Of a stretch of 64,000 bases of DNA, positions 1 through 34,014 are shown in pieces (position 1 is the first letter of the stretch; the number at the start of each line of letters is the position of its first letter). The notes below the pieces were generated by a model, which had not been told where the DNA came from, made no database searches, and worked only from the letters and a program-made list of their open reading frames with translations. Source of the stretch: an uncultured bacterium (lineage in GTDB: Bacteria; JAGOEH01; CAYLKS01); contig CAYLKS010000004.1 of the NCBI GenBank assembly GCA_964384205.1, forward strand, positions 13,301 to 77,300, in the 5' to 3' direction. A program made the translations under genes and the position numbers.

Positions 1-168
1 AATAAAAGCGGGATTTATATATACTGATTCTGAAGATTTTGTAATAATAGCACCATTCCCTGATCTTATAGATGCCGCACCTATTGGAAGATTTAAAATA
101 TTTAAAGTTTTCGGAACAGCATATATTATATTTAATAAAATTATAAGTAGTAAAAAGACTTTTTTCAT
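1..168 (-). CDS. Start of a secreted protein that continues past the left window edge; only the signal-peptide-like N-terminus is visible.
   Basis: The reverse complement has an ATG at 166-168 followed by MKKVFLLLIILLNIIYAVPKTLNILNLPIGAASIRSGNG..., a hydrophobic signal-peptide-like N-terminus. It lies directly downstream of the 171..1634 gene on the same strand. Confidence 0.35.
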   Translation of the reverse strand, partial: MKKVFLLLIILLNIIYAVPKTLNILNLPIGAASIRSGNGAIITKSSESVYINPAFI

Positions 169-170
169 AA

Positions 171-1634
171 CTAATTTAGTATTGTAATTTTATTTGATAT
201 TTTTTCTTTATTCTTTACATCGATTATGTAAAGATAGGTTCCATTAGGGACGTAATCGCCATTATCATCGCGTCCATCCCATTTTACGATAATTTTGTCC
301 GAAGAATCGAAAAATTTATTTTCGAATAAAGTTCGAATTAAATTCATAGACATATCATAAATTTTTAATGTGACATAATTTGAGTTTTTCAATGCAAAAA
401 CAATTTGAGCTTGTTGATTATCCCTTGTGCTAATGGGATTAGGAAATGAGTAAGTTTTTACTAAATCGGAATATGTTACAGGGTATGATTTTTTAAAATA
501 ATCAAAAGATTTTCCATTATTTACAGTATAAGCAAGGCCGTTATATGTTCCAATCCATAGATAAAAATCTATTGCGCATAAAGATGCTATATAATCATCT
601 GGCAATCCGTTTTGTGTGGTAAATTTTTCCAGATTTTTATTATTAAGGTTGAATGAATATAGTGCTCCGTCGGTGCCAAACCATAGTAATGAATCTTTGC
701 CGGTAATTGCTAAAGGTGCTATATCTTGTAATCCATCTATAGAATGCCATGTTTCTCCATTATTGTCTGAATAAATTGCGCCATTAGATTCTCCTGGATT
801 CCCCGAACTTGTACATGAAGCTACGATATATTTTTTATCATTGAAATAATGAATATATAATTCCCATATTTGGTTGCCGAGAAAATTTGGGGTATAACCT
901 GCTCCATACTGCGTAAATGTTTTTCCATTATCTTCTGATTTTTTGATACCAGCAGCTGTGCCGAGCCATATTATCCCTTCTTTATCAATTTTTAAAGAAA
1001 GAGCAATATTATTGAAATTGTTTACATATGTAAAAGACGGTGGATATAAGGTAGTTTCTAATGTATCATTTGTTGAATCTTCATCGGGAATAATTATAGT
1101 CCATATTGAATCTTTTATATTTTTTCTAATAAGATTGCCTCTTAAATAAGCGATAAATATAGAAGAATCTTTAAAAGCAATTTCAAACCCAACTTTTTGT
1201 GGAAATTCATCTGCAAATTTTATTTGTTCGAACTGCCATTCTGAACTATCTTTATGTCTATAGTAAATGCCGGTACCAACAGGTACAGGTTGGGACATAC
1301 TTGCATAATCTCTCATATAGCCAGCAGTAGCATAGTAATAATTATTGTTATATCCTAAAGAAAAGATATACTGATTTATATCGTTATATTTTAATTGATA
1401 GGTCCATGAATTTCCCCAATCTTCTGAAAATGCCGCACCTTCACCTGTCAAAATCCATAGCTGATTATTTAAATAATAAACTTCATATATATCATTGGAT
1501 ATTATTTCCCCCTCAGATTGCACTTTATTCAGTTTTATATTAGGTTTAATGTTATATTTTTTAGGTATTATCAATTCATTTGCATTTATTGAAATTATTA
1601 TGGCAAGAGATAATAAAATGCTTTTTTTTATCAA
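171..1634 (-). CDS. Secreted BNR/Asp-box repeat (beta-propeller) protein with a T9SS C-terminal sorting domain
   Basis: It has an N-terminal signal peptide (MIKKSILLSLAIIISINA). There are four to five Asp-box motifs of the form S-x-D-x-G-x-[ST]-[WF] (SEDWGNSW, SDNNGETW, SEDNGKTF, VNNGKSF). The C-terminal ~80 aa (NPISTRDNQQAQIVFALKNSNYVTLKIYDMSMNLIRTLFENKFF...KWDGRDDNGDYVPNGTYLYIIDV) has the pattern of a Por/T9SS CTD (FlgD Ig-like fold). Confidence 0.6.
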   Translation of the reverse strand: MIKKSILLSLAIIISINANELIIPKKYNIKPNIKLNKVQSEGEIISNDIYEVYYLNNQLWILTGEGAAFSEDWGNSWTYQLKYNDINQYIFSLGYNNNYYYATAGYMRDYASMSQPVPVGTGIYYRHKDSSEWQFEQIKFADEFPQKVGFEIAFKDSSIFIAYLRGNLIRKNIKDSIWTIIIPDEDSTNDTLETTLYPPSFTYVNNFNNIALSLKIDKEGIIWLGTAAGIKKSEDNGKTFTQYGAGYTPNFLGNQIWELYIHYFNDKKYIVASCTSSGNPGESNGAIYSDNNGETWHSIDGLQDIAPLAITGKDSLLWFGTDGALYSFNLNNKNLEKFTTQNGLPDDYIASLCAIDFYLWIGTYNGLAYTVNNGKSFDYFKKSYPVTYSDLVKTYSFPNPISTRDNQQAQIVFALKNSNYVTLKIYDMSMNLIRTLFENKFFDSSDKIIVKWDGRDDNGDYVPNGTYLYIIDVKNKEKISNKITILN

Positions 1635-1639
1635 TTTGT

Positions 1640-3166
1640 TTATTCCTTAATGAGATTTTGTATTTTCTCCTCTATGCCTTTTGACATCTCATTTATATAG
1701 TTAATAAGATTATTAGCTTCTTTAATTAATTCCTGCTCATTATGTTCTTTATCAAACTTAGTATTTACCCATATATTGTATAATGAAGCATTAGCAATAG
1801 ATTTAATCATGTTTATGGCAATTCCCAGATCAGAAATAGCAGCTTTACTGCAATTTTCTACAAGGCTTGCTGTAATTTCCAGTATTGTGCTGCTTAGTTT
1901 GATCAGTTCTAAAGGGGTAAGGCAGGCATTGTGAATAATTTCCATTGCCTTTTCTTTATCTTCATAATTTTTTACAATAGAAAAGTTGTTTAAAAGATAG
2001 GAAAGATTTTGGGCATCTATATCTATACTTTCAAGGAATAAATTTCTAATGTTTTGTAATTTTTCAGTATAAGAAAATAATGACTCTTTCAAGTGGTTAA
2101 ATTTTTTCTTATTTATTGTGGTATCTATAACCAGAAGTATTAAAGATGCTGCCATAGCTCCATTATAAGCCATAGCAGAACCTCCACCAATATGAAATTC
2201 TTTATCAGCTAATAAGTCGCAAAATGTTTCCAGCTGATTAGTTGTATAAGATTCAATATATTGTTCTATAAAGGAATCATAAAAATATTTATCATCAAAA
2301 TTGTTGAGTCTTATATTTATTTTACCAAAATTTATAAATTCTTTATATGCCAAGATTTTTTTAGGATTTTCTATTTTTTGGTAAAAATATAATCCTATAT
2401 TATAAAGAAATTCTTTCTTTATCAAGCTAATAAATTCTGTTTTGTATATTTTTATTGAATGCTTTATAGCTTCATTTTCTAAATATTCAAAAAGCAGAAA
2501 AAATGGTATATTCATAGTATGCGTTTCAATTAGAATAGATGAAAGATTATGTTCTGTTCTATAAAGTTCTGTAGAATAAATATTTAATTTATCATTTGAT
2601 TCAGATAAGAATTTTTTATTTGTTATTGCTTCAGATAGGGCTTTTAGTGATTGTTTATCATGAGTAATAAAAATTATTTCACCAATAAAATGGCTAAACC
2701 CGTAATCTAATATTATATTGTTTTTAGAATTAGAATAATTTTTTTCTTCTAATAGTTCATAATTAATTTTTTCCAGAAGAGTTTGGTATAGGGATATACT
2801 TTTTTTTGTAGTATATAAATTACAATTGATTTTATTTTCTAAGAAAGCATTTTGTAAAATGCTACGATAGACATCAATTTCCTGGAGCAATATTCCTGAA
2901 ACTGAGAATAGATTTATAATTGCTGTATTTTCATTTTCTAATTCAGATATGTATGCATAAAAGTTAAGAATAGAATTCAAAACATTATTTGGGTAACCAG
3001 CGATAGTAAAGAATGAAGTATTTAAATCAAATTGAATATTTGTATCCAATAAAAATACATTGTCTTCAGATTTTAGAATATTAATAACAATATCATAATA
3101 TTTAATATCAAAATAAGATTTAAGCGCAATTTGAGCGCCTAAAATAGGCTTTTTATAAGGAAACAT
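1640..3166 (-). CDS. Formimidoyltransferase-cyclodeaminase (FTCD)-like protein: a confident C-terminal cyclodeaminase/cyclohydrolase (FTCD_C) domain, plus a divergent N-terminal region with possible formiminotransferase-like traces
   Basis: The C-terminal ~190 aa (EFHIGGGSAMAYNGAMAASLILLVIDTTINKKKF ... ISDLGIAINMIKSIANASLYNIWVN) match the FTCD_C consensus (GGGS-A-GA-AA-L--MV--LT-GKK ... GN-NA-SD---A). The N-terminal segment (LLDTNIQFDLNTSFFTIAGYPNNVLNSIL) weakly resembles the formiminotransferase N-subdomain (LLD---------T--T--G-P--V) but lacks the NFSEG motif. The start codon overlaps the rpsT stop (TAATG at 3164-3168, minus strand). Confidence 0.5.
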   Translation of the reverse strand: MFPYKKPILGAQIALKSYFDIKYYDIVINILKSEDNVFLLDTNIQFDLNTSFFTIAGYPNNVLNSILNFYAYISELENENTAIINLFSVSGILLQEIDVYRSILQNAFLENKINCNLYTTKKSISLYQTLLEKINYELLEEKNYSNSKNNIILDYGFSHFIGEIIFITHDKQSLKALSEAITNKKFLSESNDKLNIYSTELYRTEHNLSSILIETHTMNIPFFLLFEYLENEAIKHSIKIYKTEFISLIKKEFLYNIGLYFYQKIENPKKILAYKEFINFGKINIRLNNFDDKYFYDSFIEQYIESYTTNQLETFCDLLADKEFHIGGGSAMAYNGAMAASLILLVIDTTINKKKFNHLKESLFSYTEKLQNIRNLFLESIDIDAQNLSYLLNNFSIVKNYEDKEKAMEIIHNACLTPLELIKLSSTILEITASLVENCSKAAISDLGIAINMIKSIANASLYNIWVNTKFDKEHNEQELIKEANNLINYINEMSKGIEEKIQNLIKE

Positions 3167-3423
3167 TAAGCACTAAGGTTATTTAAATAACGAGCAACTT
3201 TTGATTTTTTTCTATCTACTGTATTTCTATGTAAAACGCCTTTTTTCTTTGCAGTATCAAGCATTCCATATAATTTTTTAACTAACATAGTAGCTTCTTC
3301 TTTATTGGAAGTTTTTATTAATTTTTTGGTAACAGTTCTGATACTTTTTTTAATAATTCTATTTCTTAAACGAGCTTTTTCATTAGTTTTAATTCTTTTT
3401 TTAGCTGATTTATGATGTGCCAA
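3166..3423 (-). CDS. rpsT: 30S ribosomal protein S20
   Basis: This 85-aa basic protein starts MAHHKSAKKRIKTNEKARLRNRIIKKS... and ends ...VARYLNNLSA. That is the typical S20 N-terminal signature and size. Confidence 0.9.
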   Translation of the reverse strand: MAHHKSAKKRIKTNEKARLRNRIIKKSIRTVTKKLIKTSNKEEATMLVKKLYGMLDTAKKKGVLHRNTVDRKKSKVARYLNNLSA

Positions 3424-3624
3424 TTTTTCCTCCTTGGGTTTGTGTGTTTACAGCTTTAAAAACGTGGACTGTTAATATATAATTTTTTAAATCTTTTGTC
3501 AAGAGCTTTCTTATGTAAGTCTAAAAAAATCATATATTTTTCTCTTGTTTTTTGTTAATAAAATTAATATTTTAAATATCATTGTCAAGTAGAAAAAATG
3601 AATTTTTATAGAAGGAGTTTATAA

Positions 3625-4488
3625 ATGAAAGTTGGATTTGTTGGAATTATTGGTAAACCAAATGCAGGTAAATCTACCTTACTAAATGCGATTTTAGGAG
3701 AAGATTTATCTATTGTTACCCCAAAAGCTCAGACTACAAGAAAACAAATTATTGGTATTTATAATGATGATGAATCTCAGATTATTTTTGTAGATACCCC
3801 TGGTATTACAGAGCCAAGGGATAGATTAAATAAATTATTAGTTGAAAATGCAGAGCGGGCTATAAATGATGTTGATATTATTGTTATGATTATTGATGCC
3901 ACAAGATATATGAAGGAATTTTCTGATGATATTAAAAATTTTTTGGAAAATAATAGAAAGCCAATTTTTTTGCTTATTAATAAGATTGATAAAATCAGGA
4001 AAGCTTATATATTACCAATTATAGAATATTATAGACATTTGTATAGTTTTAATGAGATATTGCCTATATCTGCCAAATATAGGGACGGAGTTGATAAATT
4101 AATAGAATTATTAAAAGAATATTTACCGGAGGGAGAGCCTTTTTACGATCAGGATATTATTTCCACGCAAAATGAGAGAACATTTGTGGAGGAATATATT
4201 AGAGAAGGTATTTTTTATTTATTAAAACAGGAGTTGCCGTATTCTATTTATGTAAAAATTAATGAATATAAGGAAAGTGATGAAGAAGCAGAGATTTTTG
4301 CCGATATTTATGTTGAGAAAGACTCTCAGAAGAAAATAGTTGTTGGAAGAAATGGAAGTATGATAAAACAAATTAGAGAATATGCAACAGACAAAATAGC
4401 AAAATTTATTAATAAAAAAGTTAAGTTACATCTTTGGGTTAAAGTAAATAAACATTGGAAGAAAAATATTACTGAAAAACAATTATGA
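3625..4488 (+). CDS. era: GTPase Era
   Basis: G1 motif GKPNAGKST, G3 DTPGI and G4 NKID are present. The C-terminal KH domain and the 287-aa length fit Era. An RBS (GAAGGAG) lies 7 nt upstream of the ATG. Confidence 0.9.
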   Translation: MKVGFVGIIGKPNAGKSTLLNAILGEDLSIVTPKAQTTRKQIIGIYNDDESQIIFVDTPGITEPRDRLNKLLVENAERAINDVDIIVMIIDATRYMKEFSDDIKNFLENNRKPIFLLINKIDKIRKAYILPIIEYYRHLYSFNEILPISAKYRDGVDKLIELLKEYLPEGEPFYDQDIISTQNERTFVEEYIREGIFYLLKQELPYSIYVKINEYKESDEEAEIFADIYVEKDSQKKIVVGRNGSMIKQIREYATDKIAKFINKKVKLHLWVKVNKHWKKNITEKQL

Positions 4489-6164
4489 TTCGTTTTATTA
4501 AAAGAATACCTAAAACATTAGATGACTATAATGTTATTTTTAATGGAAAAGATGAGATAAGGAATCATATAGGACAACTTTGTGAAGAAAGTGTTCCTTT
4601 TGATACAATTATACTACGACGAGATAATAGTAAATTTCAAAAAGAAAGAGCATTTTCTTTTTTTGTGCTTTCCGATAAAAATTATTTTTTGACAGATATA
4701 TTGAATCCTTTGGATACAGGGGCAGAAGTACTGAATTATATTAAGAATTTAGAATTTAAATCAGATTTTGATAAAGAAATATCAAAGAAGCTTGGATTTT
4801 TACAATTTATTTACTCTTTTATGGATATTCAATATACTTTTTTTGCTCTATTAATTGGTTATAAGAATTTGGTTATAGATAATCAGAAAATACAGGCTTT
4901 AAAATTTGCTTATCCAGATTTTATTAAAAAGTTTGAAAAAAGAGATAATTTTCGAGTGAATCTAACTTTAGAATATCCAGTAGAAGTTATTATTGAAGGG
5001 TATAAAACAAGAGCTTTAAATATATCTGCAGGGGGGATAGCAATAAATACGAAGATTCCACGAATTATACATATTGGGGAAATTTTGCCTATGACATTAA
5101 CTTTTCCAAATGGGGGCTCTTGTTTTATAAAAGGAATGGTGAAGTATTTGAGTTCATATCGAGCGGGGATACAATTTATTCCTTCATCAAGAAATAAGAT
5201 TGATATTATAGAATTTAAGCACAATTTAGACATAATAAGGAAATTTGTAATAGCGGAGCAGCTGCGTCAGAAGAAAAAAGAGAAAGATTTTGAAGATTAT
5301 TTACTGGATAAGAAGAAAGTTTATGAAAAAGTAAAAAAATCTGTAAAACAAAAATTGAATATTATAAAAAATCAGGAAGAACGCAAAGCTTTTTATGAAA
5401 TTCATAGGCCTACTATTTTGGTTATTGATAATATACCAGGGACAAATTATGATTTTTTGAAGGCACATTTTAATGTTTATAATACCCACTATATAAAAGC
5501 AGAAGTGAATTTTAAAATAAATAGTATTGAAGCATTAATTTTCAATCCTGATTATTCAAATTATAAAAATATTATTGATTTTTTGGTTAAATACCATATT
5601 GCAAAGATAACACCTAAGATAATAGTTTCCAACCAATTATCTAGAGATTTTATTTTATTTTTAAATAAGAAGATTACATTTGATAATATGTTAAAATTTC
5701 CTCCTAATCCAAGGTTATTAATAAATAGCTTAAAGAAAATTTTTCACTATGATTTAGATGAGAAAACTTTTAAGATAGATCAAAAAATAAAAGATTTAAA
5801 ATTTGCAGTTGTATCTAATGTTCCATTTTTGTTATACCACATAACACATTTGTTATATTCTGCAGGTATTGAGAAAGTTGTTAGGATAGATTCTTCTGGT
5901 AAGATTGCAAATGTCTTATCTAATTTTTCGCCAGAAATTTTAATAATAGATAATATTATAGATACTGTGGATGCTTTGAGGATGGGGTATATTTTAAAGA
6001 AAAATCCAGCTTTTAAAAATATTAAAATTTTCCTTGTTATAACGGAAAAGTTTGATAATTATTTAGAGTTAATTGGGAAATATAATATTGATAGGTTTAT
6101 ATTTTTTCCTTTTAATGAAGAAGAGTTTATTGAGATTCTGGAATCTTTTGCAGTGGAATTTTAG
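4485..6164 (+). CDS. PilZ-domain (c-di-GMP-binding type) protein, 559 aa, translationally coupled to era
   Basis: Its start overlaps the era stop (ATGA at 4485-4488). The central segment has both canonical PilZ motifs: RxxxR (RDNFR, nt 4941-4955) and [DN]xSxGG (NISAGGIAI). The flanking ~150-aa N-terminal and ~300-aa C-terminal regions resemble no family I recognise. Confidence 0.55.
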   Translation: MIRFIKRIPKTLDDYNVIFNGKDEIRNHIGQLCEESVPFDTIILRRDNSKFQKERAFSFFVLSDKNYFLTDILNPLDTGAEVLNYIKNLEFKSDFDKEISKKLGFLQFIYSFMDIQYTFFALLIGYKNLVIDNQKIQALKFAYPDFIKKFEKRDNFRVNLTLEYPVEVIIEGYKTRALNISAGGIAINTKIPRIIHIGEILPMTLTFPNGGSCFIKGMVKYLSSYRAGIQFIPSSRNKIDIIEFKHNLDIIRKFVIAEQLRQKKKEKDFEDYLLDKKKVYEKVKKSVKQKLNIIKNQEERKAFYEIHRPTILVIDNIPGTNYDFLKAHFNVYNTHYIKAEVNFKINSIEALIFNPDYSNYKNIIDFLVKYHIAKITPKIIVSNQLSRDFILFLNKKITFDNMLKFPPNPRLLINSLKKIFHYDLDEKTFKIDQKIKDLKFAVVSNVPFLLYHITHLLYSAGIEKVVRIDSSGKIANVLSNFSPEILIIDNIIDTVDALRMGYILKKNPAFKNIKIFLVITEKFDNYLELIGKYNIDRFIFFPFNEEEFIEILESFAVEF

Positions 6165-6470
6165 CTTTTTTAAAGTATGCCATATCTTTTATTATTATAT
6201 AAAACGGATTAAGTATTTAGATTTATTACCTTATGTTAGCGAGAATTTCTATGCAAAATCAGATACATTTTATTATTATACAAATCAATATTGAAATTCT
6301 AAAGTAAATAAATTTGTTACTTCACTAATATTAAATCAAAAATAATAAATAATTAAAAAATGAAATGTTATAATTTTTTAGTTTAATTTTTTTCAAATTA
6401 TAAATACAATTTTTTTAATTCAAGGGTGATACTATGTTTTATTTTTTTTCAAGTGAAACCTAAAAAAAGC

Positions 6471-6499
6471 TTGACAAAAAATTTTTTGTATCTATATTT
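6471..6499 (+). promoter_or_regulatory. Candidate promoter of the thr operon (TTGACA-N16/17-TATATT)
   Basis: TTGACA at 6471-6476 is followed 16-17 nt later by TATATT/ATATTT at 6493-6499, about 36 nt upstream of the thrA ATG. In an FCB-type sigA organism the real -7 element may instead be the overlapping TAtaTTTa. Confidence 0.3.
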
Positions 6500-6534
6500 A
6501 CTCTTTATATTTTTTCAAAAAAAAGGAATCTGAC

Positions 6535-9003
6535 ATGAAGGGTAAATTTATATTAAAATTTGGTGGTACCTCTGTAGGAACACCTGACAGTATTAAAAAA
6601 GTTAAGAATATTGTCTTTGATTATATTAACAACGGAAATAAAATTGCAGTTGTAGTTTCTGCTTTTGCAAAGGTCACAGATGGTCTTCTTGGACTTGCAG
6701 AACTTGCGGAAAAGGGCAATATTGAGTACAAAAATATGGTAACTATGCTTGAAAATAGGCATTTGGAGGCTATCAATAGTCTAATTGAAGATGCTAATTT
6801 GAAATCGGAGTGTATTAACAAAGTTACTGAAATATTGTTGGAATTAAAAGAAATAGCAGATGGTGTTTTTTTGTTAAAAGAACTATCCAAAAGAACTTTG
6901 GATTTATTTGCTAGTTTTGGAGAAAGGCTTTCAGCCGTAATAATATCATATTATTTTAGACAATTTTTTCCAGATACTGAATATATTGATGCAAGAAATA
7001 TTATAGTTACTAATGATAATTTTACAAATGCAGTTGTGAATTTTTCATTATCTAAACAAAGAATAAAAGAAAAATTAGATGATTTTGATAAATTATATGT
7101 GATAACAGGTTTTATTGCATCTACGCCAGATGGTAAAACCACTACCTTAGGGCGGGGTGGTTCAGATTATACAGCATCTATTATAGGAAATATTGTAGAT
7201 GTTGATGAAATTCATATTTGGACAGATGTAGATGGAATAATGACTTCTGATCCTAAAAAAGTAGATAGGGCTTTTCCAATTGTTGAATTATCTTATGAAG
7301 AAGCAATGGAATTGTCCAATTTTGGGGCAAAAGTTTTGTACCCACCAACGATTCAGCCGGCATTGGATAAAAAAATCCCAATAATTGTAAAAAATGTCTT
7401 TAATCCACATTTTCCAGGCACTAAGGTTTGTATGAATCCTAAACCAACATCTTATATTATAAAAGGGATTTCTTCTATAGATGATATTTGTATTTTACGC
7501 GTTAAAGGTAGTGGTATGGTTGGTATTCCAGGTATTTCGTATAGATTATTTAGAGCATTGAAAGCCGGGAATGTAAATGCCATATTAGTAACACAAACAT
7601 CATCCGAGCATTCCATTTGTGTTGCGATTAAGCCAGAACAAAGTATTATTGCAAAGGATTTGGTTGAAAGAGAGTTTATAGAGGAAATTACTAATCATCA
7701 GATTGATGAGATAAAAATAGAAAATAACCTATCTATTGTAGCTATTGTTGGCAATAATATGAGGATGATTCCCGGTATATCTGGTAAAGTATTTACCGCA
7801 TTGGGCAGGAATGGTATTAATGTTATTGCAATATCACAGGGTTCGTCGGAACTTAATATTTCTATTGTTATTAATAAGAAGAATTTGATTAAAGCATTAA
7901 ATGCAATTCATGATTCATTCTTTTTATCTGATAAAAAAGTCATTCATTTATTTCTTATTGGTACCGGTTTAATTGGTACTACTTTAATGAATATTATAAA
8001 AAATCAATGTGAATATATTCGAAATAAATGCTTCCTTGATTTGCGGGTAGTTGGAATTGCAAATAGTAGAAAAATGTTATTTGATATAAAGGGAATAGAT
8101 TTTGATACATGGAAAAATGATCTGGAAAAATCAGGGTTAAGTATGGAATTGGACAGCTTTGTAGATAAAATGATTGATTTAAATTTATCGAATAGTATTT
8201 TTATTGATTGTACAGCAAGTTATGATGTTCCTAATTATTATGAAAAAATACTTTATCATAGTATTCCAGTTGTTACACCGAATAAAGTTGCTAATATTTT
8301 GAAATATGATTTATATTCAAAATTGAGACATGTTTCGAATAAATATAATGCAGGATTATTTTATGAAACAAATGTTGGCGCTGGTCTTCCTGTAATAAAT
8401 ACTCTTAAGGATTTGATTTTAAGTGGAGATGAGATTTTAAAAATAGAAGGTATTTTTTCTGGAACATTGAGTTATATTTTTAATAATTTTAATTCTAATG
8501 TGAAGTTTAGTGCTCTTGTGAAAGAAGCAATGCAAAAAGGATATACAGAGCCGGATCCTCGGATTGATTTAAAAGGGGAGGATGTTGCAAGAAAATTATT
8601 AATTTTGATAAGGGAGCTTGAAATACCATTGGAATTGGAAGATATACAGATTGAACCATTTTTGCCAAAAGATGTTTTTCAGGCAGAAAGTATTGATGAT
8701 TTTCTTACTATTCTGGAGAAGTATGATGATTATTTTAAAAATCTTGCTTTAGATGCAGAAAAGAAGAGTCATAAGTTAAAATATATTGCGAGTTTTGATG
8801 GTAATATTGCTAAAATTCAGTTGCAAGAGATCCCTGTTATTCATCCATTTTATTTTTTAACAGGAACGGATAATATAATTCTTTTTAGGACTAAAAGATA
8901 TAATAAAACGCCTCTTGTGATAAAAGGTCCTGGCGCTGGGGCAGAGGTTACAGGTGCAGGCGTTTTTGCTGATATTATAAAAGCGGCTAATACTAATTTT
9001 TAA
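6535..9003 (+). CDS. thrA: Bifunctional aspartokinase / homoserine dehydrogenase
   Basis: The N-terminus ILKFGGTSVG is the aspartokinase motif. The central region has ACT domains. The C-terminal half is a homoserine dehydrogenase (LIGTGLIGTTL NAD-binding motif, GAGLPVI, EPDPRIDL). At 822 aa it matches ThrA-type fusions. Confidence 0.85.
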   Translation: MKGKFILKFGGTSVGTPDSIKKVKNIVFDYINNGNKIAVVVSAFAKVTDGLLGLAELAEKGNIEYKNMVTMLENRHLEAINSLIEDANLKSECINKVTEILLELKEIADGVFLLKELSKRTLDLFASFGERLSAVIISYYFRQFFPDTEYIDARNIIVTNDNFTNAVVNFSLSKQRIKEKLDDFDKLYVITGFIASTPDGKTTTLGRGGSDYTASIIGNIVDVDEIHIWTDVDGIMTSDPKKVDRAFPIVELSYEEAMELSNFGAKVLYPPTIQPALDKKIPIIVKNVFNPHFPGTKVCMNPKPTSYIIKGISSIDDICILRVKGSGMVGIPGISYRLFRALKAGNVNAILVTQTSSEHSICVAIKPEQSIIAKDLVEREFIEEITNHQIDEIKIENNLSIVAIVGNNMRMIPGISGKVFTALGRNGINVIAISQGSSELNISIVINKKNLIKALNAIHDSFFLSDKKVIHLFLIGTGLIGTTLMNIIKNQCEYIRNKCFLDLRVVGIANSRKMLFDIKGIDFDTWKNDLEKSGLSMELDSFVDKMIDLNLSNSIFIDCTASYDVPNYYEKILYHSIPVVTPNKVANILKYDLYSKLRHVSNKYNAGLFYETNVGAGLPVINTLKDLILSGDEILKIEGIFSGTLSYIFNNFNSNVKFSALVKEAMQKGYTEPDPRIDLKGEDVARKLLILIRELEIPLELEDIQIEPFLPKDVFQAESIDDFLTILEKYDDYFKNLALDAEKKSHKLKYIASFDGNIAKIQLQEIPVIHPFYFLTGTDNIILFRTKRYNKTPLVIKGPGAGAEVTGAGVFADIIKAANTNF

Positions 9004-9021
9004 ACTGAAAGGGAATGTGCT

Positions 9022-10062
9022 ATGAATAAAATTAAAGTAGGTGTTTTAGGTGCTACCGGTAGTGTAGGGCAAAAATTTATCCAACTTTTGGAAAATCATC
9101 CATGGTTCGAAGTTACAGAAGTAGCAGCGTCTTCACGATCTGCAGGTAAAAAATATAAAGAAGCTGTTAATTGGTTTTTAAATACTCCCATTCCTGAAAA
9201 AATAAAAGATATAATTGTTAAAGAAGCAAAGCCTGATCTTGATTGTAAAATAGTATTTTCTGGTTTAGATGCATCCGTTGCAGGACCTATTGAAGAAGAA
9301 TTTGCAAAAAATGGATATATTGTGGTTTCAAATTCTCGAAATCATAGATTTGATGAAGATGTTCCATTGCTTGTTCCCGAAATAAATGCTGAACATTTGG
9401 AGTTGATAAAAACTCAGAAATATGGAGATGGTTTTATTGTTACTAATCCGAATTGTTCAACAATTGGCATGGTAATGGCTTTGAAACCATTGTATGATAA
9501 TTTTGGAATAGAGTCTGTATCTGTTGTTACAATGCAAGCTTTATCAGGGGCAGGGTATCCGGGGGTTTCTTCTTTAGATATTATTGATAATGTAGTTCCT
9601 TTTATTAAAAGTGAAGAAGAGAAGATGCAAAGTGAACCATTAAAAATACTTGGTGAATATAAAAATGGCAAAATAGAATTTGCTGATATTAAAATTAGCG
9701 CATCCTGTAATAGAGTACCTGTGGTTGATGGACATCTGGAAAGCGTTTCTGTGAAATTAAAAAAGCAAGCAACAGAAGAAGAAATTATTAAAGCATGGCA
9801 AAATTTTAAAGGCATACCGCAGGAATTGGATTTGCCATCAGCTCCTAAACAGCCGGTGCATTATTTTTTTGAAAATAATTTTCCGCAACCAAGGATTCAC
9901 AGAAATTTAGAAAATGGTATGGCAGTTAGTGTCGGTAGGTTGAGGAAATGCCCGGTATTAGATTATAAATTTATGGTATTATCTCATAATACTGTACGTG
10001 GTGCTGCTGGTATTGCAATTTTAAATGCAGAACTCCTGTATAAAAAAGGTTATATAAAATAG
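9022..10062 (+). CDS. asd: Aspartate-semialdehyde dehydrogenase
   Basis: VGVLGATGSVGQ is the Rossmann motif. The active-site region is NPNCSTIGMVMAL, and SGAGYPG and the C-terminal HNTVRGAAG are also present. Length 346 aa. Confidence 0.85.
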   Translation: MNKIKVGVLGATGSVGQKFIQLLENHPWFEVTEVAASSRSAGKKYKEAVNWFLNTPIPEKIKDIIVKEAKPDLDCKIVFSGLDASVAGPIEEEFAKNGYIVVSNSRNHRFDEDVPLLVPEINAEHLELIKTQKYGDGFIVTNPNCSTIGMVMALKPLYDNFGIESVSVVTMQALSGAGYPGVSSLDIIDNVVPFIKSEEEKMQSEPLKILGEYKNGKIEFADIKISASCNRVPVVDGHLESVSVKLKKQATEEEIIKAWQNFKGIPQELDLPSAPKQPVHYFFENNFPQPRIHRNLENGMAVSVGRLRKCPVLDYKFMVLSHNTVRGAAGIAILNAELLYKKGYIK

Positions 10063-10998
10063 ATGAAGAAAAGTGTAAAAGTTTTTGCTCCTGCAACTGT
10101 TGCAAATTTTATTGTTGGTTATGATATAATTGGTTTTGCATTAGAAGAGCCAGGAGATATTGTAGAAGTATCACTTAATAATAAGGATAAGATAGAAATA
10201 ATTGATATTAAAAGTGATTATTCTTTACCATTTGATATTGAAAAAAATACAGCAACTATTCCAATACTTGAGTTGTTAAATGAGCATAATATAAATATTG
10301 GACTTGATATAAAGATTGAAAAAGGCTTGCCAATTGGTAGCGGCTTGGGTTCTTCTGCTGCAAGTGCAGTCGCTGCCATTTATGCTTTAAATCTGTTATT
10401 AGATGAGAGATTTTCAAAAATACAATTGTTGAAATATTTACAGCTATCTGAAAAAATGGTTAGTGGTTCTCCTCATGCTGATAATGTTGCGCCTTCTTTA
10501 TTGGGAGGCATTGTTATAATTCAAAATTATAATCCTCTTAGTGTTAAAAAATTAAATTTAGATTTTGATTATTATGTTTCCATTATTACCCCAGATATAG
10601 CAATAAAAACAAAAGCAGCAAGGAATATGTTGCCTGAAAATGTGAAATTGAAAGATGCGGTTACTCAATGGGCTAATATAGCCGCAATGATTTCTGCTTT
10701 GTATGAACAAGATGATGATTTACTGGGCTTATCTTTGAAAGATATTATAATTGAGCCTGTGAGAGCAAACTTGATACCATATTTTTATGATATGAGAGAT
10801 ATAGCTTTAAAAAAGAGAGCAATATGTTTTGGCATATCTGGTTCAGGCCCATCAGTTTTTTTTCTTAATAGAAACAAAGCAGAAGCAGAAGTGATTATTC
10901 GGGAAATTTCAGAATTTTTATATAAAAAAAATATTAGTCATAAGAAATTTGTTACTAAAATCAATAATATTGGTCCTAAGGTTCTGGATATAAAATAA
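10063..10998 (+). CDS. thrB: Homoserine kinase (GHMP kinase family)
   Basis: The GHMP ATP-binding motif PIGSGLGSSAASAVAA is present. Length is 311 aa. The ATG directly follows the asd stop (TAGATG), and the gene sits between asd and thrC. Confidence 0.8.
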   Translation: MKKSVKVFAPATVANFIVGYDIIGFALEEPGDIVEVSLNNKDKIEIIDIKSDYSLPFDIEKNTATIPILELLNEHNINIGLDIKIEKGLPIGSGLGSSAASAVAAIYALNLLLDERFSKIQLLKYLQLSEKMVSGSPHADNVAPSLLGGIVIIQNYNPLSVKKLNLDFDYYVSIITPDIAIKTKAARNMLPENVKLKDAVTQWANIAAMISALYEQDDDLLGLSLKDIIIEPVRANLIPYFYDMRDIALKKRAICFGISGSGPSVFFLNRNKAEAEVIIREISEFLYKKNISHKKFVTKINNIGPKVLDIK

Positions 10999-11030
10999 TA
11001 AAATTTTTGGATAAAAAAGGATAAAATTAT

Positions 11031-12335
11031 ATGAAATATTATTCAACAAAAAATCCTGCAGTAAAAGTTTCTGAGGAAATAGCTGTTTTAAAAGGCTTAC
11101 CAGAAGATAATGGTTTATTTGTACCGGAGGAGATACCTTTATTAGATGATAATTTTTTTAAAAATATTGAGAAATGGTCTTTTCAAGAGATTTCTTTTGA
11201 AGTGGCAAAAATATTTTTTGATAGTATTGACGAGAAAGAGTTAAAAAATATAATTTATGATGCTATAAATTTTGATGCTCCAGTTGTAAATATAGATAAT
11301 AATATTTTTACATTGGAATTATTTCATGGTCCGACTCTTGCTTTTAAAGATTTTGGTGCGCGCTTTATGTCCAGAGTGATGTCTTATTTTATAAATAAGT
11401 ACAATAAAAAATTGGTTATTTTGGTGGCTACTTCTGGAGATACTGGCAGTGCTGTTGCTAATGGATTTTATGGTATTGACAATATAGATGTTGTAATTCT
11501 TTATCCTTCGAAGAAAATTAGTAATATTCAAGAAAAACAGATAGCTACTCTTGATAAGAATATTATAGCTTTAGAAATTGATGGGACTTTTGACGATTGT
11601 CAGTATCTTGTTAAAACAGCATTTTTAGATAGTCATTTAAACACAAAAATTATGTTATCTTCTGCTAATTCTATAAATGTTGCTCGTTTGATTCCGCAAT
11701 CTTTTTATTATTTTTACGCCTATTCACAATTGCAGAATAAAGATAATGTATATATTTCTGTTCCAAGTGGTAATTTTGGCAATCTTACTGCTGGGCTTTT
11801 TGCTAAAAGAATGGGACTTCCTGTAAAAAAATTTGTTGCTTCTACTAATGCAAATTCTGTGTTTACGGAATATTTAAATACAGGAGAATATAGACCCCGC
11901 CCTTCTATAAAGACTATATCTAATGCTATGGATGTCGGTAATCCAAGCAATTTTGAAAGAATAAAATGGCTATATAAAGATAATATTAATGCAGTTCGTG
12001 AAGATATTGTAAGTTATAGCTTTTCTGATGATGAAACTAAAATTGCAATAAAAGAAGTTTTTGGAAAATCTGGTTATATATTAGATCCTCATGGAGCTGT
12101 TGGTTATTTAGGTCTGATAAATTTTTTCGAAGAAGTTGTACAGGATAATAAAACTGGTATTTTTTTGGAAACTGCCCATCCTGCAAAATTTTTGGATATT
12201 GTAGAACCTGTTATTAATAGCAAAGTGGATGTTCCTAAACGGCTTGGAAAATTTTTAAATAAGGAAAAAAGAGCTTTGAAATTATCTAATAAGTTTGATG
12301 ATTTAAAAAATTATTTATTAAATGTTTATGGATAA
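11031..12335 (+). CDS. thrC: Threonine synthase
   Basis: The PLP lysine motif FHGPTLAFKDFGARF and ATSGDTGSA are present. Length is 434 aa and the gene lies in the thr operon. Confidence 0.85.
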   Translation: MKYYSTKNPAVKVSEEIAVLKGLPEDNGLFVPEEIPLLDDNFFKNIEKWSFQEISFEVAKIFFDSIDEKELKNIIYDAINFDAPVVNIDNNIFTLELFHGPTLAFKDFGARFMSRVMSYFINKYNKKLVILVATSGDTGSAVANGFYGIDNIDVVILYPSKKISNIQEKQIATLDKNIIALEIDGTFDDCQYLVKTAFLDSHLNTKIMLSSANSINVARLIPQSFYYFYAYSQLQNKDNVYISVPSGNFGNLTAGLFAKRMGLPVKKFVASTNANSVFTEYLNTGEYRPRPSIKTISNAMDVGNPSNFERIKWLYKDNINAVREDIVSYSFSDDETKIAIKEVFGKSGYILDPHGAVGYLGLINFFEEVVQDNKTGIFLETAHPAKFLDIVEPVINSKVDVPKRLGKFLNKEKRALKLSNKFDDLKNYLLNVYG

Positions 12336-23598: not shown

Positions 23599-24771
23599 TT
23601 ATTTAATTTTTATTACAATTAAGGTTATATCATCATCAGGTTTCCGTGTCCCTAAAAAAAGCCCAAGTTCTTTTAATATATTTTCTATAATAGCTTTGGG
23701 GCTTTTATCTTTATTGTTTGATATTGTAGCTTGTAGTCTTTTTTTCCCAAATTGCTCTTTATTATAGTTTTGAGCTTCAATTATTCCGTCAGTGTAAAAC
23801 AATATAATATCTCCTGAATCTATATTAATATCATAATTTTTATATTTACTAGTTGGAAGAAGCCCTAAGAAGAAACTGGGAGCATCAATTTTTAATATTG
23901 TATTTTTTTTTGCACTATAAATTATAGGAGGGTGATGTCCGGCATTGGAAAATAGAAGTTTTTTTTCATTTATGTTTATATCACAATATAATGCGGTTAC
24001 GAAAAAATCGGTACCACCTACTAATTTATATACGTTAGAATTTAGTTTATCTAATAAATTATTTGGGGACATCCCCCCCATATCTAATATACTATTATAG
24101 AATGATTTTATTGCGGCGGTAATTAATGCAGATGGAGTACCATGTCCTGAAACATCTGCTATAAGTAATTGCAATGAATTCTGAAATATATTAAAATCAT
24201 AAAAATCCCCGCCAAGTTGGGTAGATGGTTGATAATAGAATGATATTTCAAAGCCATTATATTCCTGGGGGATATTACTGGGCAAAAGAGTTCTTTGTAA
24301 TTCAGCAGCTAATTCTAATTCTCGTTCTAAAAGTTTTTTTTGTTCTAATATTTTGTTTCTATTTTCTATAGTTGTTTTTAATAAGTTATAATAATTAATA
24401 GCATTTTTTACTTTTAGAGGTAATTGAATATTTAAAATATTATTCGAAAGAGGCTTTTCTAAATAATCAAAGCACCCAAAATTTAATGCCTTTTTTATGG
24501 ATTCTATATCTGATAAGGCTGAACTTACAATAATAGGGATATTTTTATATTCTTTTGTATTTTTTATCCAATTTAAGAACTCAAATCCATCCATAATAGG
24601 CATTGTTAAATCTAATATTATTAGATCAATTGCTTGGTCTTCTGTAATTTTTTTTGCAACCAGACCGTTTTCTGCTTCTAATATATTATAGTTATATTTT
24701 TTTAATGTAAAAAATAAAATTTTTCTATTGAGTTTTTCATCATCTACGATAAGTACACTTTTTTTATTCAT
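23599..24771 (-). CDS. Response-regulator receiver fused to a PP2C-type Ser phosphatase (RsbU/SpoIIE-like)
   Basis: The receiver has the acidic pocket VLIVDDEK, the phospho-Asp context LIILDLTMPIMDG, and the conserved Lys. The C-terminal PP2C motifs are GGDFYDF ... ADVSGHG ... DGIIEA. Confidence 0.75.
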   Translation of the reverse strand: MNKKSVLIVDDEKLNRKILFFTLKKYNYNILEAENGLVAKKITEDQAIDLIILDLTMPIMDGFEFLNWIKNTKEYKNIPIIVSSALSDIESIKKALNFGCFDYLEKPLSNNILNIQLPLKVKNAINYYNLLKTTIENRNKILEQKKLLERELELAAELQRTLLPSNIPQEYNGFEISFYYQPSTQLGGDFYDFNIFQNSLQLLIADVSGHGTPSALITAAIKSFYNSILDMGGMSPNNLLDKLNSNVYKLVGGTDFFVTALYCDININEKKLLFSNAGHHPPIIYSAKKNTILKIDAPSFFLGLLPTSKYKNYDINIDSGDIILFYTDGIIEAQNYNKEQFGKKRLQATISNNKDKSPKAIIENILKELGLFLGTRKPDDDITLIVIKIK

Positions 24772-24783
24772 ACAATATCCTTA

Positions 24784-25662
24784 TTAGAGGTCTTTATATT
24801 TTATTAATGTAATTTGGTTACCTTTATCATTATATTCAAATTTATCAAAAAAAGTTTTTATCATCAGAATGCCTCGTCCATGCTCATTTAATATATTTAT
24901 ATCGTCATTTATTGTTTTTTTCCAGTTAAATCCTTTCCCCTCATCTTTGATAACAAATTTTACATAATTTTCTGTTAAATGGTAATCTATAACAACCTTT
25001 CGTTTTGAGAAAACTGGATGTTTTTTTCTTTCAGATAATAAATCATAATATTTATTATCTTGAATAGCGTGCTTTTTAGTATTCCCATCAATTTCAAAAT
25101 TCCCATGTTCTATAGCATTAATAATTACTTCATAAAGAGCAAGTTCAATTTTTTTTATATTTCGGGTTATTTTTTTTGCATTGAAGGTTAATTGATTGAT
25201 TACACTGGGGATTTTGGATAGATCATTTTCTAAAATTATTCTTTTTTTTTCTTCTATTAATGTTTCAGTATCGTAGAGATTTATTATATTGCGATAGAGA
25301 AAAATAGCTTTATTTATTAAAGTGTTCCATTCTTCTTGTTTATCAGGGATTTCAAAACAATAGAATAATTTTTTAGAATATAGTGTATATAATATATCCT
25401 TTTTGATTTTTTTTACAAGAGCTATAGGGAGTACATCTAATAAAAGATTTCCAGAATGAATCATTTCAAGTAGTTTGGATATATTGGGGAGTGATTCGTT
25501 TTCATAATAATATAATAAGATATTTACTTTTTCTTTAAGAATTATATCAAAAGCTTCTTCTATGTTATTATTTACAATACTTTCTATTTCATATTTATGA
25601 GCATTTTTTTTTATTGTAGTTACTATTGGATGATTTTCTTGAGTGAACAGCAAAACCTTCAT
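24784..25662 (-). CDS. Pseudo-receiver fused to an RsbW-like GHKL Ser-kinase/anti-sigma-factor-type ATPase domain
   Basis: The N-terminal ~120 aa have a receiver-like fold but lack the acidic pocket and phospho-Asp (Y in that position). The C-terminus (LYEVIINAIEHGNFEID ... KDEGKGFNW ... EHGRGILMIK) has the N, G1 and G2 boxes of RsbW/SpoIIAB-type kinases. Confidence 0.55.
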   Translation of the reverse strand: MKVLLFTQENHPIVTTIKKNAHKYEIESIVNNNIEEAFDIILKEKVNILLYYYENESLPNISKLLEMIHSGNLLLDVLPIALVKKIKKDILYTLYSKKLFYCFEIPDKQEEWNTLINKAIFLYRNIINLYDTETLIEEKKRIILENDLSKIPSVINQLTFNAKKITRNIKKIELALYEVIINAIEHGNFEIDGNTKKHAIQDNKYYDLLSERKKHPVFSKRKVVIDYHLTENYVKFVIKDEGKGFNWKKTINDDINILNEHGRGILMIKTFFDKFEYNDKGNQITLIKYKDL

Positions 25663-25682
25663 TTTTTTAACTCACTATTAGT

Positions 25683-26741
25683 TTAGATTTCATTTAATAT
25701 AAAAGGGATTTTAAGTAATGGTACTATTTTTTTGACAGCGTTTAATTTAATTGCTTCTTTAGGCATTCCAAAGACCACACAGCTTTCTTCATCTTGAGCA
25801 ATAGTAAAAGCTCCCTTTTCTTTTAATGCAAGCATTCCTTTAGCTCCATCATCCCCCATACCTGTTAAAATAACTGCAATAGCATTACTACCTGCGGAAT
25901 TAGCTGCAGATTTAAATAAAACATCCACACTCGGTTTATGTCTATTTATAGGTGGTCCATCTTTTACTTCCACATAATAAGTAGTACCTGAGCGTTGCAA
26001 TAACATATGCTTGCCACCGGGAGCAATTAGAGCAAGGCCTTGTTCTAATTTATCACCATTTTCTGCTTCTTTTACTCTAATAGGACAGGTGCTATTTAAT
26101 CTTTCTGCAAAAGCTTTAGTAAATCCAACTGGCATATGTTGTGTAACTACTATTGGTTTGACACCTGTTTTTAATCTTTTGAAAATAGTTTCTATAGCGA
26201 CAGTTCCGCCAGTAGATGCTCCTATAACGATTACAGGATCGGTTTTTATTATTTTAGTTTTATAATCTTTTATATATTCATCTACATCTATTTTTTCTTT
26301 TAACCCGGTTTTAAACTTGCTATCTAATGTTTTTTGTGGAAGTATTTTTGCTTTGACTGCCATTTTCAATTTTTCTATAATTTCATTTTTTAGAGAATGT
26401 AGCTCTATAGGAGCAGAAGGTTTTTTTATGAAGTCTATAGCACCCAGCTCTAAAGCTTTCATTGTTATTTTTGAATGTTTATCTGTTAGAGAACTAACCA
26501 TTATAACCGGGGTTGGATATTTGTCCATAAGTTTTTCCAGAAAAGTAATGCCGTCCATTTTGGGCATCTCTACATCTAAAGTAATAACGTCAGGTTTTCC
26601 TTCTTTTACATATTTTCGAGCTTCATAAGGATTTGACGCTTCTCCAATAACAATAAAATCAGGATCGCTTAAAATAATATTTTTTAAAACAGTTCTTGTT
26701 AAAACTGAATCATCGATAATTAATACTTTTATTTTACTCAT
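25683..26741 (-). CDS. cheB: Chemotaxis response-regulator protein-glutamate methylesterase
   Basis: The receiver is KVLIIDDS ... DVEMPKMDG. The CheB methylesterase domain is GASTGG ... TQHMPVGFTKAFAERLN ... catalytic region. Length 352 aa. Confidence 0.85.
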   Translation of the reverse strand: MSKIKVLIIDDSVLTRTVLKNIILSDPDFIVIGEASNPYEARKYVKEGKPDVITLDVEMPKMDGITFLEKLMDKYPTPVIMVSSLTDKHSKITMKALELGAIDFIKKPSAPIELHSLKNEIIEKLKMAVKAKILPQKTLDSKFKTGLKEKIDVDEYIKDYKTKIIKTDPVIVIGASTGGTVAIETIFKRLKTGVKPIVVTQHMPVGFTKAFAERLNSTCPIRVKEAENGDKLEQGLALIAPGGKHMLLQRSGTTYYVEVKDGPPINRHKPSVDVLFKSAANSAGSNAIAVILTGMGDDGAKGMLALKEKGAFTIAQDEESCVVFGMPKEAIKLNAVKKIVPLLKIPFILNEI

Positions 26742-26744
26742 CTT

Positions 26745-28217
26745 TTATATCCTTTTAGGGTTAACTATTTCAAATATAAAAGTTATTCCATTTTTTTGTT
26801 CATAATAAAATTTTATTTTTAAAATATCTAATAAAAATTTAATTATATATATTCGTAAAGTCTTCAAATCAACCCTTTCTTCTTCTATATTAATATTGTC
26901 CAGTATAGTAAAATCATTAATAAGTTTATTATAAGAGTCTTCATTTATTCCATCTAAATTAAATTTAATATAAATTGCATTTGAGCTTTCGTCAATATTA
27001 ATTTTTATTTTTTTGAAAAAATTTCTGTGAATAATTATTATTTCCATAAAATAAGTTATCAAATAATAAAATAAGTCAAAATCGAATAAAATTTTATTAT
27101 TTGCAATATTTTGTTCTATCGATATTGGAAATTTAGTAATTCTTTCCTTTTCAAGAAAGTTATATATACAATCTTCAACAATTCTTATAACATCTATTTC
27201 TTGAGATTTAGCTTTCGACCTGAAAGAACTTATATTTAGCAGATATAATAGATCTTCTATAAATGAAATCATTTGATTATAAGAAGACATGCTTTGTGTG
27301 AGTGAAATTGTAATATCAGTATGCTCTAAAGTTTTTAAATAATCGAATATATTTGCAATATTTATTAGAGGAATCTTGATATTTTGAGACAAAATAGATA
27401 TAAGCTTTTTTTGAATTAGTAGTAAATTTTCTAATGTCTTATTTGTATTTTTTAGTTCTTTTTCATATAAAAATCTTTTTAAGTGAACATTTATTCTGGA
27501 AATAAATTCCTCATATAAAAATGGTTTTACAATATAGTCATTAATCCCGGCATTGAAAGCATCTAACATATTTTTTTTATCATTGTTGCTTGCTGTCATT
27601 ATAATAGGTGTATTGGTGTACTCTGATTTATTTCGTATTTTTTTGGTTAGTTCAATACCATTAATTTCTGGTAAAAATAAATCTATAATAAAAAGGTCAA
27701 TTTTGTTTTGATTCATAATTTTTATAGCTTCTAAAGGATTATCTGTGGAAAGAGTTTTATATCCATGCCGATCTAATATATATTTTATCATAGAATTTAT
27801 TAAAGGAGAGTTAATGACGACTAATATATTTATATCTTTAGAATTATTTTTAGCATAGAAGAAGTCCCTGACAAAATTATATAAATTATCTTTTATTTCA
27901 TTTTTATTAAAAAAATGAATTGCTCCTACATTAAAGCCTCTTATTCTTGAAAAAAAATTATCTTTACCTGTTATCAATATAACAGGGGTATTGAGCATTT
28001 TTTTATTTTGTTTGATTTTTCTGCACAATTCAAAACCATCCATTCCTTTCATTATAATATTTATAGTTATAAAATCTAAATTTGTTTTGTTGATAATATC
28101 TAAAGCATCAAATCCATTACTTGCCTCTATTATATTTGTGTCTTCCAGTTTTTCTAATTCTTCTTTTATTAGAAAACGAGCTATTTTACTATCATCAACA
28201 ATTAGTACATTTTTCAT
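26745..28217 (-). CDS. Tandem-receiver protein with a degenerate (His-less) histidine-kinase-like C-terminal region
   Basis: REC1 has the Asp pocket (LIVDDSK) but Asn at the phospho-acceptor site (DFITINIIMKGMDG). REC2 keeps the acceptor Asp (LFIIDLFLPEINGIEL) but lacks the DD pocket. The HisKA-like helix reads ILSQNIKIPLINI (Gln where the His of SHELRTPL would be). A poorly conserved ATPase-like tail follows. Confidence 0.55.
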   Translation of the reverse strand: MKNVLIVDDSKIARFLIKEELEKLEDTNIIEASNGFDALDIINKTNLDFITINIIMKGMDGFELCRKIKQNKKMLNTPVILITGKDNFFSRIRGFNVGAIHFFNKNEIKDNLYNFVRDFFYAKNNSKDINILVVINSPLINSMIKYILDRHGYKTLSTDNPLEAIKIMNQNKIDLFIIDLFLPEINGIELTKKIRNKSEYTNTPIIMTASNNDKKNMLDAFNAGINDYIVKPFLYEEFISRINVHLKRFLYEKELKNTNKTLENLLLIQKKLISILSQNIKIPLINIANIFDYLKTLEHTDITISLTQSMSSYNQMISFIEDLLYLLNISSFRSKAKSQEIDVIRIVEDCIYNFLEKERITKFPISIEQNIANNKILFDFDLFYYLITYFMEIIIIHRNFFKKIKINIDESSNAIYIKFNLDGINEDSYNKLINDFTILDNINIEEERVDLKTLRIYIIKFLLDILKIKFYYEQKNGITFIFEIVNPKRI

Positions 28218-28219
28218 TT

Positions 28220-28825: not shown

Positions 28826-28827
28826 CT

Positions 28828-29658: not shown

Positions 29659-29661
29659 GTA

Positions 29662-31017: not shown

Positions 31018-31030
31018 AATATCCCCCTGT

Positions 31031-33605: not shown

Positions 33606-33617
33606 AACTGCTACCTT

Positions 33618-34001: not shown

Positions 34002-34014
34002 ATAAATATCCTTT

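Follow-up and report, generated by a model that had tools for sequence, protein, structure and literature searches.

The window analyzed here comprises 64,000 nucleotides from an uncultured bacterium (contig CAYLKS010000004.1, positions 13,301 to 77,300), and its element of interest is an open reading frame (ORF) of 508 aa that lies directly behind rpsT, the gene for ribosomal protein S20. The ORF (1640..3166, minus strand) was found to encode a diverged formiminotransferase-cyclodeaminase (FTCD), in which the cyclodeaminase (CD) half has kept its conserved core and the formiminotransferase (FT) half has lost the motifs characteristic of that enzyme. This loss of FT motifs beside a conserved CD half is the main point that the present analysis adds to the initial annotation of the locus, which was made from the sequence alone.

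The 85-aa ORF that precedes the FTCD-like gene (3166..3423, minus strand) was identified as rpsT with both Pfam and NCBIfam profiles (PF01649 Ribosomal_S20p, E = 5e-22, 78.7 bits against a cut-off of 29.5; TIGR00029, 83.3 bits against a cut-off of 33). On the minus strand, the junction reads ...CTT AGT GCT TAATG TTT CC..., with base 3166 common to the TAA stop of rpsT and the ATG of the FTCD-like ORF, as had been pointed out in the initial annotation. The position of this start codon is backed by the homologues, whose N-termini align from residue 1 or 2; the aligned N-termini of the family are MFPYKKPILGAQ, MMFHYHKPILGIQ, MLFHFKRPLLGCQ, and MPFKKPVIGAQ. The rpsT leader (3424..3510, minus strand) contains an AGGAGG Shine-Dalgarno sequence 7 nt 5' of the TTG start, together with the best sigma-70-like promoter match of the region. 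The latter, TTGACA-17-TATATT (3502..3474), lies upstream of rpsT and agrees with the consensus at 11 of 12 positions, making it a putative promoter by consensus match only.

Members and distribution of the family

Relatives of the window protein were sought with phmmer, using residues 1 to 310 as the query against 1.84 billion representative proteins. Only three other clusters were retrieved (P0006, P0007, and P0008; 518 to 523 aa; E values from 1e-29 to 2e-12), giving four clusters with that of the window, and all three relatives carry FTCD_C. The family amounts to five sequences in a collection of ~15 billion, one of them named as Candidatus Delongbacteria. The only named member found was MBP7461449.1, labeled "cyclodeaminase/cyclohydrolase family protein," and one family locus lies on a contig of a Candidatus Delongbacteria metagenome-assembled genome. 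Among the GTDB species representatives, a scan with a single sequence returned no close relatives, and a scan with the alignment returned only two loci. Metagenome contigs scanned with CD-domain patterns gave no further members, only canonical FTCD and stand-alone FTCD_C loci at 19 to 30% identity. In all four lineages the ORF is intact, at 508 to 523 aa, and the sequences align colinearly with no frameshifts; the gene is therefore not a pseudogene. Overall, this is a rare subfamily of FTCD restricted to one lineage, its transferase half degenerate and its place in a putative rpsT operon strictly conserved.

The N-terminal half is a formiminotransferase domain

Residues 1 to 310 (2237..3166, minus strand) correspond to a diverged FT domain in which both subdomains and the linker are present and the His82 loop and the NFSEG motif are missing. 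With standard models, the window protein was matched at E <= 1 by neither Pfam FTCD_N (PF07837) nor Pfam FTCD (PF02971), and the FtcD model TIGR02024 gave 24.1 bits against a cut-off of 221.25, over residues 26 to 71 only. The description of the N-terminal ~320 residues as only faintly FT-like was therefore accurate at the level of single-sequence scores, no Pfam FT model having reached threshold. Among the relatives, the model for the FT C-terminal subdomain, PF02971, was passed by all three, with scores of 43, 49, and 30 bits against a cut-off of 24, whereas PF07837 was failed by all four family members, the best relative scoring 14.8 bits against 27.

A profile made from the four N-terminal sequences and compared with the PDB matched rat FTCD (1tt9) and the pig FT domain (1qd1) with E values of 4e-12 and 3e-9. 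These matches consisted of two colinear stretches that span both FT subdomains and the interdomain linker, and the same profile also matched monofunctional formiminotransferases. The full-length AlphaFold model (predicted local distance difference test [pLDDT] score of 80) had the whole of FTCD 1tt9 as its top Foldseek match (E = 5e-20), and 278 of the 310 residues superposed on 1qd1 in the two-subdomain FT fold. Residues 1 to 310 are hence a genuine FT domain, and the protein is a diverged FTCD descended from a fused bacterial FTCD.

Two origins had been considered for the N-terminal region, namely, a highly diverged FTCD in an AT-rich genome and a new domain recruited to a cyclohydrolase module. 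Since the region was shown to be an FT domain, both by the profile match to 1tt9 and 1qd1 and by superposition onto FT structures, recruitment of a new, unrelated domain is ruled out. The former proposal was borne out by profile and fold as far as a diverged FTCD is concerned, but the AT richness of the genome does not account for the divergence: GC contents of 25 to 49% are found among the family genes, and the relatives, with gene GC contents of 31%, 41%, and 49%, show every one of the motif losses described below. An artifact of AT bias was therefore rejected as the source of the FT divergence.

Motif loss and inverted conservation

When aligned with canonical sequences, the FT half of the family shows losses of four types. 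In all four members, CVPN(F/I)SEG is replaced by KKPxLGxQ, in agreement with the earlier observation that NFSEG is absent from the window protein. The GxHPRxGA loop, which includes the position of His82, is removed by a deletion of 8 to 11 residues in all four, and the HMMER alignment to 1tt9 and 1qd1 agrees with this placement. In the pig FT domain, His82 is described as adjoining N5 of the bound folate and is the proposed catalytic base (PMC12622545). The LY..AA, HPT.G, GAR, and AYN motifs are likewise lost, and the Asn of the QVSMN motif is Glu in 4/4 members.

For a quantitative comparison, 60 full-length canonical fused FTCDs from a metagenome scan served as the control set (median pairwise identity of 59%, minimum of 38%), and columns at least 90% conserved among them were counted as conserved. 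The FT half contains 116 such columns; only 6 of these are common to all four members of the family, 21 are retained by the window protein, and 66 are retained by none. In the CD half, by comparison, 16 of the 38 conserved columns are kept in all four, 22 are kept in the window protein, and 5 are kept in none. The FT positions that are invariant in both the family and the canonical FTCDs are D41, T54, G57, P59, E244, and F290. Mean pairwise identity within the family is 44% for the CD domain, 30% for the FT N-subdomain, and 21% for the FT C-subdomain, an inversion of the pattern in canonical FTCDs, where the FT half is better conserved than the CD half. Judged from these sequences, the FT domain has most likely lost the residues needed for formimino transfer and is catalytically inactive.

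The cyclodeaminase domain

Residues 311 to 508 (1643..2236, minus strand) form a CD/cyclohydrolase (FTCD_C) domain that was recognized by Pfam, PDB, and Foldseek comparisons alike. Pfam FTCD_C (PF04961) covers residues 312 to 482 with an E value of 4.3e-31, and its 108.5 bits against a cut-off of 24.5 place the C-terminal assignment of the initial annotation well above the Pfam threshold. The best PDB sequence match of the domain was the FchA cyclohydrolase 7vg4 (E = 6e-16), and the 508-aa protein also matched Thermotoga maritima cyclodeaminase 1o5h and rat FTCD 1tt9. In Foldseek, the all-helical fold of the domain gave TM-scores of 0.77 to 0.80 overall, with 0.79 to 7vg4 (normalized to the target) and 0.77 to 1o5h.

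The core of the domain was kept in all four family members, comprising G327 to G329 (within GGGS, 327 to 330), D384, P418, D446, N464, and N468. Measured against 38 mostly stand-alone FTCD_C proteins, the family retains every 100%-conserved column with the exception of M345. On this indirect evidence, the CD domain is most likely still an active folate enzyme, acting as a 5-formimino-tetrahydrofolate (THF) cyclodeaminase and/or a 5,10-methenyl-THF cyclohydrolase. A choice between these two activities is not possible on the basis of sequence, since the cues conflict: the best PDB match is FchA, yet the best database matches are cyclodeaminases of the hut type. The window protein is not an orthologue of FchA, since the FchA equivalog model NF045657 gave 79.4 bits against a cut-off of 275.

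Linkage to rpsT

The proximity to rpsT noted in the initial annotation holds in all four family lineages. In every family locus, rpsT is immediately followed by the FTCD-like gene (gaps of -1, -1, +12, and +20 nt), and the S20 proteins encoded upstream are 54 to 61% identical. No S20 gene was found in 80 other FTCD/FTCD_C loci from metagenomes, nor in the other comparison loci, even at E <= 50. Each of the four lineages initiates rpsT at a non-AUG codon (TTG in three, GTG in one) behind a strong Shine-Dalgarno sequence, the starts lying at 3421-3423 in the window (leader 3424-3440, minus strand) and at 4438, 5728, and 7702 in loci L002, L008, and L004, respectively. In Escherichia coli, rpsT starts with UUG, a feature tied to rpsT autoregulation, and the non-AUG starts of the family resemble this case. 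The FTCD-like gene, on the other hand, has an AUG start in all four lineages, with no Shine-Dalgarno sequence within 30 nt. An AUG of this kind behind rpsT is the pattern that would be expected for termination-reinitiation.

Folding of the four junctions revealed no conserved terminator between rpsT and the FTCD-like gene. In the window, a terminator-like hairpin with a 9-bp GC-containing stem followed by a T-rich tract lies at 3119..3143 (minus strand), corresponding to codons 8 to 16 of the FTCD-like ORF, and the junction as a whole folds with a z score of -1.9. Nothing comparable was present at the junctions in L002, L008, and L004, so that the hairpin is private to the window genome, where it could attenuate read-through from rpsT. 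A conserved RNA element, terminator, or attenuator was considered for this junction and rejected, as Rfam was blank over positions 1 to 7000 and the four folded junctions had no structure in common.

The conservation extends beyond the gene pair. Five nucleotides past the stop of the FTCD-like gene, the window carries the gene for a beta-propeller/BNR-like protein of 487 aa (171..1634, minus strand) with a C-terminal domain of the type IX secretion system, recognized through Pfam Reg_prop, FlgD_ig, and CHU_C. A propeller gene occupies the same position in all family loci, at 47 to 54% identity. It is followed by a gene of ~305 codons for a weakly PorQ-like protein in the window, P0007, and P0008 lineages, the P0006 contig ending earlier. 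The PorQ-like proteins are 33 to 44% identical across lineages, and the NF033711 score is 32.7 bits against a cut-off of 220. The conserved block thus consists of four genes (rpsT, FTCD-like, ~480-aa propeller, and PorQ-like; window 1-1634, minus strand; L001 11533-13925; L004/L005 9733-12079; L008 7754-9600). Its upstream neighbor differs from lineage to lineage, being Era, a GH63-like protein, an adenylate cyclase-like protein, or an abhydrolase, so that the surroundings of the block do not in general retain their gene order. The rpsT block itself has stayed together, and of its members the FTCD-like gene evolves fastest, with 29 to 35% identity within the family against 47 to 61% for S20 and the propeller. 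No literature on an rpsT-cyclodeaminase linkage or on an FT pseudoenzyme was found.

Just beyond the start of the window, purM (TIGR00878, 385 bits; L001 13936-14958) lies three genes downstream of the FTCD-like gene. This association with purine synthesis is weak and not conserved, being seen in the window organism only.

Histidine utilization and folate genes

The genes hutH, hutU, and hutI were absent from the 64-kb window (~50 ORFs scanned) and from all family loci, and no folate gene was found among the same window ORFs. The absence of hut neighbors is not unusual here, since canonical fused FTCDs were likewise without them: none of the canonical fused FTCD loci from metagenomes (L014-L093) had hutH, hutU, or hutI within ~4 kb. 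The canonical fused bacterial FTCDs are 503 to 523 aa long, matching the window protein in length. The closest stand-alone CD proteins, by contrast, are encoded in operons of the Firmicutes type with the order hutH-hutU-FT-hutI-CD. The textbook association with hut genes is thus a property of split FT and CD genes and not of the fusions. The expectation that FTCD normally stands beside hut genes was accordingly correct for the split genes of Firmicutes-type hut operons and incorrect for the fused FTCD loci.

Other genes in the window

On the plus strand, era (287 aa) overlaps, via ATGA, the gene for a 559-aa protein (3625-6164), an unusual partner for Era, in which PilZ was the sole recognized domain and for which there was no NCBIfam match. 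A threonine operon follows at 6535-12335 (plus strand) with a fused aspartokinase-homoserine dehydrogenase, asd, thrB, and thrC. A large chemotaxis/partner-switching cluster at 23599-35537 (minus strand) encodes a response regulator-SpoIIE phosphatase, an HATPase_c_2 anti-sigma-like kinase, CheB, a double-receiver protein, CheD, CheR, CheW, CheA, CheY, and a receiver-HATPase_c_2-STAS fusion, as well as an Hpt+CheW protein that lacks a kinase domain (29662-31017). Genes of arginine biosynthesis were clustered at 39766-46309 (plus strand), namely, those for ornithine carbamoyltransferase, an M20 deacetylase, and a fused AA-kinase/NAT protein, together with argG, argC, and argH. The ORFs at 37262-37633, 52779-53891, 60310-62346, and 62369-63088 (plus strand; 123 to 678 aa) had no Pfam match at E <= 1e-5, the last two coming after a TonB-dependent-receptor-like gene (57082-60297).

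Discussion

The 508-aa protein is probably an FTCD derivative that combines an active folate CD half with a noncatalytic FT scaffold and is cotranscribed and translationally coupled with rpsT. In this arrangement, the CD domain would supply the pool of methenyl- and 10-formyl-THF, and the FT domain would persist as a scaffold keeping the oligomer assembled, perhaps with folate binding retained. Mammalian FTCD (1tt9) is an octamer, a ring of alternating FT-FT and CD-CD dimer interfaces. By analogy, a dead FT domain could be retained for assembly, because the FTCD ring is built partly on FT-FT interfaces. The FTCD-like gene would be cotranscribed with rpsT from the rpsT promoter, and ribosomes terminating at the rpsT stop would reinitiate at the overlapping or nearby AUG, so that the level of the FTCD-like protein would follow that of S20. 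Coupling to S20 would in this way tie the protein level to ribosome synthesis. A rationale based on the demand for 10-formyl-THF in fMet-tRNA formylation and purine synthesis is speculative.

Several observations weigh against a dead scaffold attached to an active enzyme. In the window protein alone, the otherwise universal Pro of PGGGS in the CD domain is Ile (I326). The conserved block also holds the genes for a secreted propeller and a weakly PorQ-like protein, neither having an evident link to folate. KKPxLGxQ and LLDT(N/H)IQF(D/E), picked as the two short patterns best conserved in the family, lie in the FT-like domain, exactly at the sites of the canonical CVPNFSEG and LLD..D.NR motifs. 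The same domain has family-specific invariant polar residues, Q12, H159, R203, and E214, on predicted beta-strands (n = 4 sequences). These stretches and residues fit a remodeled functional site as well as they fit a dead scaffold.

It is possible, although doubtful, that the adjacency to rpsT is functionally meaningless and reflects a gene order inherited in one lineage, with expression by read-through from a strong promoter. All members do belong to one related lineage, as seen in the 54 to 61% identity of their S20 proteins, and the conserved block runs on into two unrelated downstream genes. The literature search did not turn up a link between S20 and folate enzymes, and to our knowledge no biochemical link between them is known. 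An inherited order is, however, harder to reconcile with an upstream neighbor that is different in every lineage, with operon-like gaps of -1 to +20 nt, and with the conserved lack of a Shine-Dalgarno sequence.

The main rival to the scaffold interpretation, itself unlikely, is that the FT-like domain has acquired a new function, its remodeled intersheet pocket binding another ligand or partner. Candidates would be a different one-carbon donor, a metabolite with a regulatory role, S20, or the ribosome itself, and through the protein, one-carbon status might then be linked with translation or with the neighboring envelope genes. The two family motifs at the canonical motif positions and the invariant polar residues are what would be expected of such a site, and a full-length FT domain has been retained in all lineages, in strict linkage with rpsT, the propeller gene, and the PorQ-like gene. 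On the other hand, the "invariant" positions rest on four sequences, the mean identity of the FT-like subdomains (21 to 30%) is low for a strongly selected site, and the ligand or partner is purely hypothetical. A bolder version of this proposal is very improbable: in Delongbacteria-like bacteria, the FT domain would have been remodeled into a new binding or catalytic module, and the protein, obligatorily coexpressed with S20 through termination-reinitiation, would connect the one-carbon pool (10-formyl-THF for initiator-tRNA formylation and purines), by physical contact or by regulation, with the small ribosomal subunit or with the initiation of translation.

Equally hard to credit is a fully functional bifunctional FTCD that appears aberrant through fast drift, with other residues taking over the catalysis of formimino transfer. 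The FT domain has its complete fold (278 of the 310 residues superpose on 1qd1), the architecture and length are those of canonical fused FTCDs of 503 to 523 aa, and six FT positions from D41 to F290 are invariant in both groups. Against this, the loop with the proposed catalytic His82 is deleted in 4/4 members, 66 of the 116 canonical FT-conserved columns are kept in no member, FTCD_N fails in 4/4, and TIGR02024 reaches 24 bits where 221 are required. Moreover, evolution is faster in the FT half than in the CD half, opposite to canonical FTCDs, and no hut genes occur in the 64 kb. That the gene is decaying, as a pseudogene or functionless relic, is suggested by its low identity relative to S20 and the propeller (29 to 35% against 47 to 61%) and by its having the lowest GC content in its neighborhood but is exceedingly improbable in view of intact, colinear ORFs of 508 to 523 aa without frameshifts in four lineages, a universally conserved FTCD_C core that is kept except for M345, and a confidently predicted structure (pLDDT of 80).

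If an active CD half joined to an inactive FT scaffold is the correct description, the family represents a natural bifunctional substrate-channeling enzyme in which one half has turned pseudoenzyme with the full length kept, and it would help in understanding the noncatalytic contribution of the FT domain to FTCD assembly. Automated annotation is corrected as well: the label of MBP7461449.1 misses the FT-derived half, and annotation as "glutamate formiminotransferase," with histidine catabolism inferred from it for these uncultivated bacteria, would be wrong. The strict rpsT linkage without a Shine-Dalgarno sequence of its own makes the gene a clean candidate for studying how translation can be coupled to that of a ribosomal protein. 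The finding is narrow in scope, comprising five sequences from one candidate lineage, and is neither broad in distribution nor mechanistically surprising.

Three known systems invite comparison. With fused FTCD (1tt9/2pfd; FT domain 1qd1), the window protein is 19 to 25% identical. The family differs from these enzymes in lacking the His82 loop and the NFSEG, HPT.G, GAR, and AYN motifs, with FTCD_N and TIGR02024 failing on the window protein; in having a CD half better conserved than its FT half; and in always standing behind rpsT, a position found for 0/80 other FTCD/FTCD_C loci. The stand-alone FTCD_C proteins (~210 aa) include the formimino-THF cyclodeaminases of hut operons in Clostridia and Fusobacteria, TM1560 (1o5h), and FchA of M. 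extorquens (7vg4). The CD domain of the window protein is 25 to 31% identical to them, with profile E values down to 1e-29, and has in common with them the all-helical fold and the GGG, D, P, D, and N..N core. They differ in having no FT-like domain (FchA is ~207 aa), whereas the CD domain of the window protein is fused to an FT-like region of 310 aa. Lastly, the monofunctional glutamate formiminotransferases (~300 to 320 aa; P0009, P0010, and the FT of hut operons) are homologous to residues 1 to 300, with profile E values of 9e-11 and 8.5e-8. These enzymes keep all of the catalytic motifs and have no CD domain; for the window protein, the opposite is true.

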